Below, one piece after another: positions 13,577 through 47,394 of a stretch of 51,699 bases of DNA. Origin of the DNA: Candidatus Woesearchaeota archaeon (lineage in GTDB: Archaea; Nanobdellota; Nanobdellia; Woesearchaeales; UBA10216); the NCBI GenBank assembly GCA_016188145.1, contig JACPIJ010000060.1, positions 1 to 51,699 on the forward strand, in the 5' to 3' direction. The position numbers and the translations under genes were made by a program. The notes under the pieces are model-generated. The model made no database searches. It saw nothing but the letters and a program-made list of their open reading frames with translations, and was not told the DNA's origin. Position 1 is the stretch's first letter. Each line of letters opens with the position of its first letter.

Positions 13577-14803
13577 ATGAAACGTGCTAACACAGGCGTT
13601 TTTGCGGCATTCCTTCTTGTTTTCTTGTTTTTGTTAGTCACTGTTATCCCTCTTCTGCTGCTCCTCTTCTCTTACGGCTTTTTGCAACTACCTAAGCTGA
13701 CTTACTATAACATCACAATCGCAGCCACCACAGGGCTTTTCATTATTCCCGTTTTCCTTGTTTTCCTCGCAGCAGTCATTGCTCTAGCAGCGAAAAGAAA
13801 AGGGGCAGCCGTTGCTGCTGGCTTAAAACCAAGGCGGGAACCTGAGCCTTATCCCTGGGAAAGTGTCTTCGGGGCAGCAGGGAAGGAGGATTTCAAGGCA
13901 GTAAAGGTAACTGCGAAAACAGCTTTTACCAGTCCTAAACCTAGCGTAACTGTCCTGGCTGTTGCTGCCGTTATTGTGGCAGCGACTGTTGTTTTCTTTG
14001 TAATGGTGGTGCCAACAGCAAAGGACGTGTTCACAGGAGGTGGCAAAGGCTCAAATTTGACTGTCCTGGCGAACTTAAGCGCTGGCATCTCAGATAACGT
14101 CGTGAAAAATGAAAGCGCAAGCTCGCTTTTCCAGTTTTTTAAGGCAAAATTAAGTAATTTAAGAAAAACAAACATGACTGGCCTGGCAGAAGAGGCAAGG
14201 ATAGCCGAAGCAAAAAAGCTGGCTGAACTGGAAAAGGCAAAGCAAAAGCAGGAAAAGGAAGCAAAGCAGAAGGAACAAAAGGCTTCATCTTTTTCAGCTT
14301 TGGCAGCGAAATTCAATGCTGTTAAGGCTGCAGCAGTGAAGGTGTCTGCGTTTTGGCCTTATGCCCTTGCCGGGATTAGCATGCTGGTGATGCTTGCTGG
14401 TGGTTTTTATTTTTACAGGGCAAAAAAGGTTAAGCCCGCTGCGGAATGGGTCAGAACATGCGTGGCTGACTCTGCCGGCTGGCTTGCCGTGCTTTTTTCT
14501 GACGTGAAAAGAAACGGCCTGAAGCTTCTGATAATTGCAGCTGTGGTTTTGGCTGCAGCCTTGGCTTTCGTGTTCAGAAGCTGGCTTAAGGCCAAATTGC
14601 CGGCTTTTTCCAAAGTTGCCGTGCCTGTTCTTGCGGCTATCCGCGAATCAGCCATTAGCTTTTTTTACGCGGCAAGAAACTTTCTTCTGGCTTACAGGAT
14701 TTACATCCTGATTGGCATAGCTGTGCTTCTGGTGATTTTTGGGATTCTTTTTGTGCTTGAACGCAAAGGGAAAGAAGCAGGAACACCCAAATCAAAAACC
14801 TAG
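13577..14803 (+). CDS. hypothetical membrane protein with a Lys/Ala-rich coiled-coil segment
   Basis: Several TM helices flank AEEARIAEAKKLAELEKAKQKQEKEAKQKEQK. A GGGGAGG Shine-Dalgarno lies 7 nt upstream of the ATG at 13577 (the ORF track starts at 13556). Confidence 0.55.
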   Translation: MKRANTGVFAAFLLVFLFLLVTVIPLLLLLFSYGFLQLPKLTYYNITIAATTGLFIIPVFLVFLAAVIALAAKRKGAAVAAGLKPRREPEPYPWESVFGAAGKEDFKAVKVTAKTAFTSPKPSVTVLAVAAVIVAATVVFFVMVVPTAKDVFTGGGKGSNLTVLANLSAGISDNVVKNESASSLFQFFKAKLSNLRKTNMTGLAEEARIAEAKKLAELEKAKQKQEKEAKQKEQKASSFSALAAKFNAVKAAAVKVSAFWPYALAGISMLVMLAGGFYFYRAKKVKPAAEWVRTCVADSAGWLAVLFSDVKRNGLKLLIIAAVVLAAALAFVFRSWLKAKLPAFSKVAVPVLAAIRESAISFFYAARNFLLAYRIYILIGIAVLLVIFGILFVLERKGKEAGTPKSKT

Positions 14804-15954
14804 CCTGCAATGGCCTTGGCTGCAGTAATCACGGCATAGATTATCCCGAACAGGAACATAAATGCAAGAGCAATTGCCACAAGCCTTGGCATGTTGATTG
14901 CGTATTCCGGTTTTACCTCAGCCTTTTTCTTCTTCGCGGCAATATGCATTGCTACCAGCAGGATTCCTTCTATGCCGCCAGCCACTGCACCTGCAACTCC
15001 CAGCACGGCAATGAAGTTCTTCAAGCCGAGAAGGAAAGCCAGCAGGGGGATGAAGCATGTCAGTGCCCACGCGGTCTTCCTTTTAAGCCTGTAGTCATAA
15101 ACGTACATCTCCTTTAGCGCAAGCCCAAGTGCTATGAACGAAGTGCTCATTGCCAGCACTGCAAAAAGGTTTGCGAACAGAATCATTCTTTCCCCAAGCA
15201 TTTTGCCAATGGTTACAGTTGCCAGCTGGCCTGTTGCTGCGCCGCTTATTCCAACAACAGCCACAGCAAAGAGCGAATAAAGCACTATGGGCACAAGCCC
15301 TCCCAATATTATTGCCCTTTTGAGAAGCTTTCTGGCTTTTCCGCTTCCGAGCTCTTCCCTCATTTCTGGTATGGCAACCGCTCCCAGAAAGGCAAATAGC
15401 ACGACACCATACGGCACAAACAGGTTTTGTATGCTTGTTCCAGTGAAGTTCGCCGCAGAGAACCTGCCTGAGTTTGCAGCGACTACTATTATAATAGATA
15501 TAACGGCAATGGTTAAAAAAGACAGCAGCAGCTCGGATTCCTCAACAGCCTTCAGCCCGAAGTATACTATTGCCGAGGCAGCTGCAAAAAAGATAATGCT
15601 CCAGAAAAATGGCGTGAGCTGGGGGTTTATGGCGTTAAGGGCATTCCCCGCTCCTATAATGTAGGCGAGCAGGGCTCCGTAGATGCCAAAAACCATTGCA
15701 AGCGCCATGAGCCTCTTGCCATTCTTGCCAAGATATTTTTCCGCATAGCCTGTCAGCTGGTGGTTTCCTTTGGTTCTAAGCACCACCTCCCCAAGCAGCA
15801 GGTTGACCAGCATCACGGCAGCGCCTATTATAATAATGTGCAGCAGCCCAACAGCCAAGCCTGACTTGGCAACAACATATGGTATGCCCAGCACACCGGC
15901 TCCGATTGTGGTGCCGACAAGCGTTGCGACTGCCTCAAGGAACCTCTTTTTCAT
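14800..15954 (-). CDS. amino acid permease (Trp/Tyr permease / AAAP-like family)
   Basis: 384 aa with about 11 TM helices. The N-terminus EAVATLVGTTIGAGVLGIPYVVAKSG is typical of this transporter family. Confidence 0.75.
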   Translation of the reverse strand: MKKRFLEAVATLVGTTIGAGVLGIPYVVAKSGLAVGLLHIIIIGAAVMLVNLLLGEVVLRTKGNHQLTGYAEKYLGKNGKRLMALAMVFGIYGALLAYIIGAGNALNAINPQLTPFFWSIIFFAAASAIVYFGLKAVEESELLLSFLTIAVISIIIVVAANSGRFSAANFTGTSIQNLFVPYGVVLFAFLGAVAIPEMREELGSGKARKLLKRAIILGGLVPIVLYSLFAVAVVGISGAATGQLATVTIGKMLGERMILFANLFAVLAMSTSFIALGLALKEMYVYDYRLKRKTAWALTCFIPLLAFLLGLKNFIAVLGVAGAVAGGIEGILLVAMHIAAKKKKAEVKPEYAINMPRLVAIALAFMFLFGIIYAVITAAKAIAG

Positions 15955-15977: not shown

Positions 15978-15985
15978 TTTAAATA
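15978..15985. promoter_or_regulatory. shared, near-palindromic TATA box (TTTAAATA) for the divergent permease gene and tRNA-Trp
   Basis: It lies 24 nt from the permease ATG (15954) and 26 nt from the tRNA 5' end (16012). TTTAAATA-type boxes recur about 25 nt upstream of many starts in the window. Confidence 0.6.
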
Positions 15986-16011
15986 TGTTGCTGCAAAGCC
16001 TTAAATCCTGT

Positions 16012-16231
16012 GGGGATGTAGTATAAACACCCGCGGCTCTTGAGTAGTGCTGCGGGATGGTACAGCCCGGCATTATGGGGGCCTCCAGCGATTGGAGAAC
16101 TGAGCCAACGGCAAACCGAAGGCGATGACCGACCCATAGTAGAAAGCCTCGGATCTGGGTTCAAATGACCTTTTTTTTGCGAAAAATGTCAATCAAAAAA
16201 CGCAAGAAGGCTGAAGGTCCCAGCATCCCCA
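16012..16231 (+). tRNA. tRNA-Trp(CCA) interrupted by three introns (D-arm, canonical 37/38, T-loop)
   Basis: Exons 16012-16024, 16064-16088, 16145-16166 and 16219-16231 join to a 73-nt cloverleaf: GGGGAUG-UA-GUAU-AGCCCGGCA-UUAU-G-GGGGC-CUCCAGA-GCCUC-GGAU-CUGGG-UUCAAAU-CCCAG-CAUCCCC-A. The acceptor stem is a perfect 7 bp and the T-stem a perfect 5 bp. The D-loop has A14, G18G19 and A21. A TATA box lies upstream and a T7 run downstream. The first intron boundary is ambiguous between 9/10 and 13/14 because of the GTAT/GTAC duplication. Confidence 0.8.
16166..16200 (+). repeat. hairpin + ATCAAAAAC element, copy F, inside the tRNA-Trp T-loop intron
   Basis: TGACCTTTTTTTTGCGAAAAATGTCAATCAAAAAACG aligns with the minus strand of copy C (TGACCTTTTTAGAAAAAAGGTCAATCAAAAACG). 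The similarity continues into CGCAAGAAGG versus CGAATAAGG. Confidence 0.7.
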
Positions 16232-16282
16232 CCTTTTTTTCCAAAAAGCTTATATAGTGCTTTTGCCTTTACAAAGTTCAGC

Positions 16283-47281: not shown

Positions 47282-47394
47282 CGCCACGGGCGGGAGTTTC
47301 ACTCTGCCTCACAGCAGAGTTTTGAACCCACACGATGGTTGGCCCATCACCCGCTTCTGGAGCGAGCGCATTAACCAAGTTCTGCCACCGTGGC
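47282..47394 (-). tRNA. type II tRNA, Leu(CAG) by anticodon position, with a 25-nt T-loop intron
   Basis: Minus strand: GCCACGG-TG-GCA-GAACTTGGTTAA-TGC-G-CTCGC-TCCAGAA-GCGGG-T-GATGG-GCCAA-CCATC-GT-GTGGG-TTCAAAA[CTCTGCTGTGAGGCAGAGTGAAACT]CCCGC-CCGTGGC-G. It is 88 nt after intron removal. A CTTTATAATG box lies about 25 nt upstream. Position 33 is C and the discriminator is G, both atypical. Confidence 0.65.

Follow-up and report, generated by a model that had tools for sequence, protein, structure and literature searches.

The stretch of DNA analysed here (the window; 51,699 nucleotides, the whole of contig C8) comes from a groundwater Candidatus Woesearchaeota archaeon (DPANN) whose genome, G000, is a 1.18-Mb assembly of 81 contigs with 47.8% G+C and a completeness of 84.6%. 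Positions 16012-16231 of the plus strand hold an interrupted gene for the tryptophan tRNA, tRNA-Trp(CCA), which is flanked by a transporter gene (14800-15954, minus strand) on one side and by a small open reading frame on the other. The comparison with related genomes given below confirms that this is a genuine gene, its 73-nt product divided among four exons by three bulge-helix-bulge (BHB) introns; that it is functional and spliced as described further on we consider very probable. The BHB motif was taken to have two 3-nt bulges, each cut after the second nucleotide, with a 4-bp helix between them; in what follows H is this central helix, h the exon-side (outer) helix and h' the inner helix. 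All features are on the plus strand.

16012-16026, plus strand: exon 1, nt 1-15, with the 5' strand of the acceptor stem, U8 A9, the 5' strand of the D-stem and A14 A15; matched in a BLAST search with the mature sequence
16027-16065, plus strand: intron 1, 39 nt, position 15/16, HBh' type; H pairs GUAU (16021-24) with GUAC (16060-63), bulges AA^A and AG^C
16066-16088, plus strand: exon 2, nt 16-37, with the remainder of the D-loop, the 3' strand of the D-stem, the 5' strand of the anticodon stem and CUCCAG
16089-16144, plus strand: intron 2, 56 nt, canonical position 37/38; h is the anticodon stem and H sets C32-C35 against 16139-42, with three of the four paired and C34 mismatched
16145-16165, plus strand: exon 3, nt 38-59, with the 3' strand of the anticodon stem, variable loop GGAU, the 5' strand of the T-stem and UUCAAA
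16166-16217, plus strand: intron 3, 52 nt, T-loop position 59/60; h is the 5-bp T-stem and H pairs UUCA (16160-63, U54-A57) with UGAA (16212-15)
16218-16231, plus strand: exon 4, nt 60-73, with U60, the 3' strand of the T-stem, the 3' strand of the acceptor stem and discriminator A73

An earlier first-pass annotation of this DNA had assembled a 73-nt tRNA from slightly different exons (16012-24, 16064-88, 16145-66 and 16219-31). These do total 73 nt, and ARAGORN reports the joined sequence as tRNA-Trp(CCA); the perfect 7-bp acceptor stem, anticodon loop CUCCAGA, T-loop UUCAAAU and discriminator A that it had described are all present in the joined exons. Reading the conserved tRNA nucleotides directly gives U8, A14, G18G19, A21, U33, T-loop UUCAAAU and A73. 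The pair G1:C72 and A73 agree with what we take to be the archaeal and eukaryal tryptophan identity set.

In the unspliced window ARAGORN finds no tRNA gene, and Rfam gives no tRNA match at the gathering cut-off or at E<=10. This failure is expected because the gene has three introns. When introns 1 and 3 are deleted, ARAGORN itself reports a tRNA-Trp with a 56-nt intron at the canonical site, i(38,56), the same boundaries that the first-pass annotation had given for this intron, which we keep. A cloverleaf could also be the chance product of choosing six boundaries freely within 220 nt, and brute-force deletion followed by ARAGORN does give spurious tRNA calls of other identities on the same DNA. 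Finding a cloverleaf is thus weak evidence here by itself, and the case rests on the relatives.

A DNA search of 40 relatives found the gene in nine genomes of the same genus. Four genomes from other genera of the family also have it, which makes 14 with G000. The congener records are metagenome-assembled genomes (MAGs) named 'Candidatus Woesearchaeota archaeon', groundwater being the source of most. The same transporter gene adjoins tRNA-Trp in 9/9 of the same-genus genomes, the gene is interrupted in all 13 relatives examined, and after removal of the introns ARAGORN reports tRNA-Trp(CCA) for every one of the 14 genomes. The introns are distributed as follows.

Intron 1 (D-loop): present in G000, G008, G005, G001, G007 and G002, and in G012 and G021 of other genera; absent from G006, G003, G004, G010, G018 and G024
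Intron 2 (37/38): present in 14/14 genomes; absent from none
Intron 3 (T-loop), present: 52 nt in G000; 32-33 nt in G008, G005 and G004, one family; 146 nt in G006 and 102 nt in G010; 42 nt in G003
Intron 3 (T-loop), absent: G001, G007, G002 and the four other-genus genomes

In the orthologues that lack introns 1 or 3 the D-arm or T-arm is contiguous and canonical, and the absence is exact. Covariation was tested on an alignment of 11 distinct mature sequences over the 21 pairs of the cloverleaf. Cells of the cloverleaf are paired in 97.4% of cases, and both sides have changed in nine of the 21 pairs; none of 500 shuffles was as good, and sliding the 3' partners as a control left 0-1 pairs with changes on both sides. 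Compensatory changes such as 6:67 U:A to C:G, 50:64 U:A to A:U and 29:41 G:C to A:U are seen in the acceptor, T and anticodon stems, and the partners of the pairs are spread over separate exons, with as much as about 200 nt of DNA between them. These changes, together with the conservation of the orthologues and the exact absence of introns in relatives, already refute a chance cloverleaf, to which we assign next to no probability. The first-pass description of a functional tRNA-Trp with one canonical and two non-canonical introns is backed by this presence and absence among orthologues, by the covariation and by the geometry of the BHB motifs.

At least four unrelated intron-3 sequences occur within the genus. 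Three sister pairs (G000/G005, G006/G008 and G001/G004) are resolved in a tree built from the transporter gene next to tRNA-Trp, and the intron state differs within each of them; between the sisters G000 and G005, the sequences that occupy the intron-3 site are unrelated. The tree is of a single gene and resolves no more than these pairs, so the fast turnover of tRNA-Trp introns that it shows is to be read qualitatively.

Intron 1 lies in the D-loop. Its central helix, formed by G10-U13 with GUAC, has four pairs out of four in all six genus members that carry the intron, and the bulges across these carriers are AA^A and AG^C (or AA^C). The genus orthologues without the intron (G006, G003, G004 and G010) read ..GUAUAACCCGG.. 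at this point, and removal of 16027-16065 leaves A14-A15-C16, the same as in these intronless genes, with A15 matching U48. The 8-bp helix that the first-pass annotation had seen inside the intron is there, with one G-U pair:

16030-16056, plus strand: intron-1 hairpin, 8-bp helix of 16030-37 with 16049-56, which extends helix h' and is present in the minimum-free-energy fold

The intron boundaries that it had proposed, 16025-16063 (position 13/14, leaving G15), have no BHB motif, and the register 16027-16065 (position 15/16, in the D-loop, leaving A15) is the better one. Splicing at 13/14, with the exon-intron structure otherwise as described, would also yield a 73-nt cloverleaf that ARAGORN accepts, and G15 is common in tRNAs; but a 4-bp helix and 3-nt bulges are missing (UAGU against UGGU fails), A15 is the expected Levitt partner of U48, and it is the 15/16 register that has the perfect H in six genus carriers and reproduces the AA-C/U of the intronless orthologues. 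We therefore regard cleavage at 13/14 as unlikely. A naive BHB scan of 16005-16240 was of little help in placing boundaries: its top scores are chance pairings, and the sole meaningful match is that of intron 3 (16165/16217).

Intron 2 is the intron shared by all 14 genomes. Its exon-side helix is present and its inner helix h' is weak; in H, C32-C35 face intron positions -6 to -3. The intron also contains elements that resemble a box C/D methylation guide:

16092-16097, plus strand: putative guide UUGGAG, complementary to C32-G37 (16083-88), with C34 opposite the fifth nucleotide upstream of CUGA
16100-16128, plus strand: kink-turn (K-turn) element, with CUGA (box D'-like), a stem-loop GCC..GGC and GAUGA (box C'-like)

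The guide hairpin is also part of the minimum-free-energy fold. In 14/14 orthologues one finds the pattern 5'-..UUGGAG-NN-(C)UGA-[hairpin]-NNUGA..-3', with the guide in the same register throughout, and the fifth position upstream of the D'-like box pairs with C34 in every genome (UUGGAG-AA-CUGA here). The hairpin between the boxes varies in length and sequence and stays paired (GCCGAAAGGC, GCCGCAAGGC, GUCGCAAGAC and GCGAAAGC); the form in this gene is 20 nt. A GA directly before a helix, followed after it by three nucleotides and a second GA, is the signature of a box C/D K-turn. Genes for fibrillarin and Nop5 stand side by side on contig C50 of G000.

The nearest known counterpart is the box C/D guide in the tRNA-Trp intron of Euryarchaeota (Pyrococcus sR50 and Haloferax volcanii), under whose guidance C34 is methylated (PMC4090602, PMC7994747). 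The tRNA and the intron position are the same, an antisense element sets C34 at N+5 from CUGA, both introns have a K-turn, and genes for fibrillarin and Nop5 exist here too. The woesearchaeal intron differs in having one K-turn, of the internal D'-hairpin-C' type, a guide duplex of about 6 bp and a length of 38-57 nt, compared with a median of about 65 nt. Terminal C and D boxes were not found in intron 2 or the flanking exons. A second guide, for U39, is not present either: position 39 is G in 13/14 genomes and C in G021, never U, and no D box follows the 3' spacer. A CUGA in the 3' spacer of G007 was considered as a box and rejected, as it is not conserved. From these comparisons it is plausible that intron 2 guides methylation; it falls outside the two-motif sR50 family and probably works like it. 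The guide would most likely direct 2'-O-methylation of C34 (Cm34) through L7Ae, Nop5 and fibrillarin, as a one-sided version of the euryarchaeal guide. The conserved CCCAU of the intron may pair with AUUGG of the guide, forming helix h', or with U23-G28 of the tRNA.

Intron 3 interrupts the T-loop. Its motif is a near-canonical hBHBh' with bulges AA^U and GG^U, and it has a long h' (CCUUUUU..GCG with CGC..AAGAAGG), which has a bulged A and is present in the minimum-free-energy fold. For this intron the first-pass annotation had the mature sequence right; the boundaries it gave, 16167-16218, are moved by the BHB geometry to 16166-16217. A split T-arm scan of G000 finds 21 candidate tRNA genes with an intron at 59/60, tRNA-Trp included. 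ARAGORN recognises 17 of them once this intron is removed (Gly, Ser x2, Leu x5, Arg x2, Pro, Phe, Val, Ala, Tyr, Asp and Lys). In the full set of 21, nucleotide 57 of the T-loop and the first nucleotide of the intron helix strand are A:U in 15, G:C in five and an exception in one, and this covariation is independent support for a BHB motif at 59/60. The candidates include those at C4:13288, C4:13595, C13:12145, C72:3623 and C77:7529/8656/8890 and others on C49 and C65. Introns of this sort are the rule in G000, a point that the first-pass annotation had overlooked, as it had the K-turn guide of intron 2 and the repeat copy in intron 3 described below. A further tRNA gene hidden in the window, at 47282-47394 on the minus strand, is also of this kind: it was missed by ARAGORN and Rfam in the raw DNA, and ARAGORN reports tRNA-Leu(CAG) once a 25-nt intron at 59/60 is removed. 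On contig C74 (2710-2885, plus strand) there may be a three-intron tRNA-Gln(UUG), with introns of about 23 nt in the D-region, 46 nt at the canonical site and 15 nt in the T-loop; this candidate comes from brute-force deletion with ARAGORN only.

The splicing of such introns requires an endonuclease, EndA, and a ligase. RtcB is encoded in G000, and the rtcB gene itself has a 32-nt, frame-breaking insert (C39:21253-21284, minus strand) within the HEGYGFPIGG motif. The insert has a good BHB motif (AAGG:CCUU, bulges UU^U and AG^A). A similar insert, its stem altered by compensatory changes, is found in five congeners, and it is exactly absent in G005, G007 and G009, which read HEGYGFPIGG. A BHB intron in rtcB with three intron-free congeners implies that BHB splicing must be active in the lineage.

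EndA was examined in the relatives, where 10/10 congeners and 24/26 genomes overall have one match above the Pfam cut-off; the open frames that hold these matches are 180-246 aa long. When seven genomes were searched with the protein, neither an EndA paralogue nor a beta subunit came up at E<=10. The closest solved structure is that of the Nanoarchaeum equitans EndA catalytic subunit (3IEY_A, E = 1.6e-36), followed by those of Methanopyrus kandleri and Methanocaldococcus jannaschii. Pairwise alignments show gaps opposite the crenarchaea-specific loop (CSL) of Aeropyrum pernix, the region of the ARMAN-2-specific loop (ASL) and the six-residue basic NEQ loop. The last of these is located next to the catalytic histidine, where the woesearchaeal protein reads YDRGVKPGEDH. 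This segment equals that of M. jannaschii in length and is conserved in each of the seven EndA proteins that were taken from genomes of the order. In G008 the gene is found between an RNase Z gene and a gene for a TFE-like protein (locus L019, C1:142600-144800); its product, of 199 aa, has a 26-residue Lys/Glu-rich N-terminal extension that is not present in M. jannaschii EndA.

Broad specificity of EndA has been tied to the L1/CSL, L2/ASL and L3/NEQ loops (PMC5829648, PMC3488258), and the alpha4 form requires strict BHB motifs (PMC3239211). The first-pass annotation had taken the non-canonical introns to imply a broad-specificity endonuclease. This is not established, and sequence does not support it, as the EndA of the congeners is a single subunit of about 200 aa, not a three-unit fusion, and has none of the L1/CSL, L2/ASL and L3/NEQ insertions.

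Several points weigh against a functional gene spliced as described. The G000 assembly has no EndA gene (by Pfam search and by tblastn with the G008 protein; the assembly is 84.6% complete), and tblastn with its neighbours, RNase Z and the TFE-like protein, gave nothing either. The whole EndA/RNase Z neighbourhood is thus missing, and the joint loss of all three genes indicates that the region is simply unassembled. The EndA of the relatives looks plain, single-subunit and alpha4-like in sequence. Intron 1 has no exon-side helix. The 4-bp central helix of intron 2 has a conserved mismatch, with 3/4 pairs in all 14 genomes and the mismatch usually at C34, and as a guide this intron has a single K-turn, no terminal C/D boxes and a duplex of just 6 bp. 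Lastly, a T8 run within intron 3 (16171-78) could cause archaeal RNA polymerase to stop early. T5-T6 runs occur in the T-loop introns of other tRNA genes of G000 (Pro-UGG, Val-GAC, Asp-GUC, Tyr-GUA and Lys-UUU), so read-through must be adequate.

The T8 run bears on two alternatives. If transcription stopped there, 5 nt past the 5' splice site, the last 14 nt could be joined in trans as in Nanoarchaeum, and split tRNAs do exist in DPANN archaea (PMC5829648). No TATA-like box is found between 16179 and 16217, however, just 52 nt separate the two parts, which fold as one long helix, and the intron-free orthologues are contiguous; a split tRNA seems extremely unlikely. The gene might otherwise be a decaying pseudogene whose T-loop was hit by a dispersed repeat, with the working copy in the unassembled part of a genome that is only 84.6% complete. 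An intron 3 that consists for the most part of a repeat copy and includes a T8 run would fit such a history, as would the different intron at the T-loop site of the sister G005. The exons are intact, though, with compensatory changes relative to the relatives; the tail of the insert and the T-arm (T-loop and T-stem) together build a proper BHB motif; similar T-loop introns, several with T5-T6, occur in about 20 further tRNA gene candidates of G000, 17 of which ARAGORN confirms as tRNAs once the intron is removed; and tRNA-Trp is interrupted in all 13 relatives, beside the same transporter gene within the genus. We judge a pseudogene very unlikely. A scan of anticodon loops and BLAST of the mature sequence found no second tRNA-Trp in the G000 assembly, so that this gene is the sole candidate in it, and the completeness of 84.6% leaves room for a second copy.

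The repeat in question is a short hairpin dispersed in the genome, with the consensus TGACC-T5-loop-A5-GGTCAATCAAAAA(ACG); a DNA search gave element matches in all ten congeners. The copy in intron 3 and the counts of related motifs in G000 are:

16166-16202, plus strand: copy of the dispersed hairpin repeat (TGACC-T(n)-loop-A(n)-GGTCAATCAAAAAACG) that has an expanded T-run of eight and a single mismatch in its 3' arm
Strict short form of the repeat: 26 copies
Tail motif GGT[CT][AT]ATC[AG]A[AG]AA: 55 copies
GTCAATCAAAAA: 30 copies, 0.18 expected from composition
15-mer GTCAATCAAAAAACG: five copies, 0.003 expected from composition

The last 15 nt of intron 3 are outside the repeat; they form the other strand of the inner helix and contribute the UGAA to which the T-loop is paired. 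Two sequence families recur among the T-loop introns of the genome (TGACCTTTTT.. and CAGCCCTTTT..AAAAGCCCTGGGGGAAAAC..), and several of these introns are built like the dispersed repeat, as TGACC-T(n)..A(n)-G(C/G)UCAA(C/U)CAAAAA. The T-loop is near-identical in all tRNAs, so an intron that has its complement is portable between tRNA genes, and we infer that this portability explains the hot spot at 59/60.

Intron 3 of tRNA-Trp, mostly a repeat copy whose 15-nt tail supplies the strand complementary to the near-universal T-loop, is probably a recent arrival. We propose further, as a tentative possibility, that the T-loop introns of G000 belong to one sequence family with the hairpin repeat (TGACC-T(n)..A(n)-GGTCAATCAAAAA), which would be a mobile element, and that intron 3 is an intron gain caught in the act. 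A repeat that carries a short tail complementary to the T-loop (UGAA or CGAA with a 2-nt bulge) would be able to form a BHB motif with any tRNA T-arm; the tailed element could then insert at position 59/60 of any tRNA gene, or be copied there, and leave the gene working.

Copies of the hairpin repeat are also found in other settings. At C14:~2400-2510 one is immediately upstream of tRNA-Phe(GAA), and the first 11 nt of this tRNA (GGGAACGTAGC) are duplicated on both flanks of the repeat, resembling a target-site duplication. Copies of 33 nt at C23:7907 and C23:9892 are in frame, in two different reading frames, inside apparent protein genes, which were identified by eye only as Elp3-like and NOL1/NOP2/Sun-like.

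Two elements flank the tRNA-Trp gene:

15978-15985, plus strand: TATA-like box TTTAAATA, read directly, 26 nt upstream of tRNA position 1
16234-16240, plus strand: T7 run, read directly, just past the 3' end of the gene

The block AACATTTAAATA (AAC(A/T)TTTAAATA) is found upstream of nine of the ten genus genes, and G010 has AACTTTAAATA instead; the position and conservation of the TTTAAATA box lead us to infer that it is an archaeal promoter. T-rich tracts are present downstream of most of the orthologous genes, and the T7 run is likely to be the transcription terminator. The locus is a mosaic in its identity to the relatives: the tRNA-Trp region with its upstream spacer shares 95% identity with G008 and 88% with G005, and the adjoining transporter protein is 91.6% identical to G005 and only 73.5% to G008. 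This pattern suggests recombination between lineages near the tRNA gene.

Transcription from the TATA-like box at 15978-85 would give a precursor of about 220 nt, in which EndA would cut three BHB motifs and RtcB would join the four exons into the 73-nt tRNA. For intron 1 the 5' strand of the D-stem is predicted to pair with the 3' end of the intron. Cleavage of intron 2 would use the anticodon stem as outer helix, with nt 32-35 paired to the 3' end of the intron, and that of intron 3 the T-stem, with U54-A57 paired to UGAA of the intron.

Multi-intron tRNA genes are known from Thermoproteales and ARMAN-2 (PMC3239211). As here, as many as three BHB introns can interrupt a single gene, at non-canonical as well as canonical sites, and standard tRNA finders miss such genes; 59/60 is a documented site, at which ARMAN-2 pre-tRNA-Cys is cleaved in vitro (PMC3239211). 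The present case differs in its lineage, Woesearchaeota, in an EndA that is a single subunit of about 200 aa with no CSL, ASL or NEQ loop, not an (alpha-beta)2 or epsilon2 enzyme, and in the genome-wide hot spot at 59/60 with its 21 candidate genes. In a further known system similar intron sequences occur in different tRNA genes and turn over quickly among close relatives, as they do here; in contrast, related sequences are here also a dispersed repeat outside tRNA genes (intergenic and, by our reading of two copies, in frame in coding genes), and the introns are concentrated at one site, 59/60.

For an EndA with none of these loops that serves a D-arm HBh' intron, the nearest precedent appears to be Methanopyrus kandleri (Kaneta 2018, PMC5829648). 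Its D-arm intron likewise has no exon-side helix and its EndA none of the L1, L2 and L3 insertions; the enzyme cuts this intron poorly in vitro, and the mature tRNA exists in vivo (PMC5829648). In M. kandleri, however, EndA is an (alpha-beta)2 heterotetramer and splicing is backed by RNA-seq; in the present lineage a single subunit gene is detectable, and splicing is predicted from sequence.

Three-intron genes, and introns at 59/60 and in the D-loop, are thus already known from Thermoproteales and ARMAN-2, and are found here in a lineage in which most genes of this kind have gone unannotated. To our knowledge three introns is the maximum recorded for one tRNA gene. The newer angles, which we put forward with more reserve, are a repeat as the possible source of T-loop introns, a seemingly very fast replacement of introns between sisters, and a plain EndA that would serve a disrupted tRNA set.

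ARAGORN and Rfam miss this gene and, by the same logic, would miss much of the tRNA set of these DPANN genomes; as the finders miss intron-bearing tRNAs, the apparent 'missing tRNAs' of such MAGs are an annotation artefact. The ten genus orthologues, with their varied intron combinations, are a test bed for the rate of BHB intron gain, loss and replacement, and the same set can test a single-subunit EndA with none of the specificity loops on relaxed and non-canonical introns. The link between intron 3 and the dispersed repeat bears on how archaeal tRNA introns arrive. If the proposed gain of introns from the repeat is true, it would account for the 21 candidate T-loop introns in one 1.2-Mb genome and for the unrelated intron in the sister, and would provide a DNA-level route for the arrival of BHB introns, a question left open by a 2026 study of Asgard archaea. 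A corollary would be that a plain single-subunit EndA with no L1-L3 loops can support a heavily disrupted tRNA gene set.

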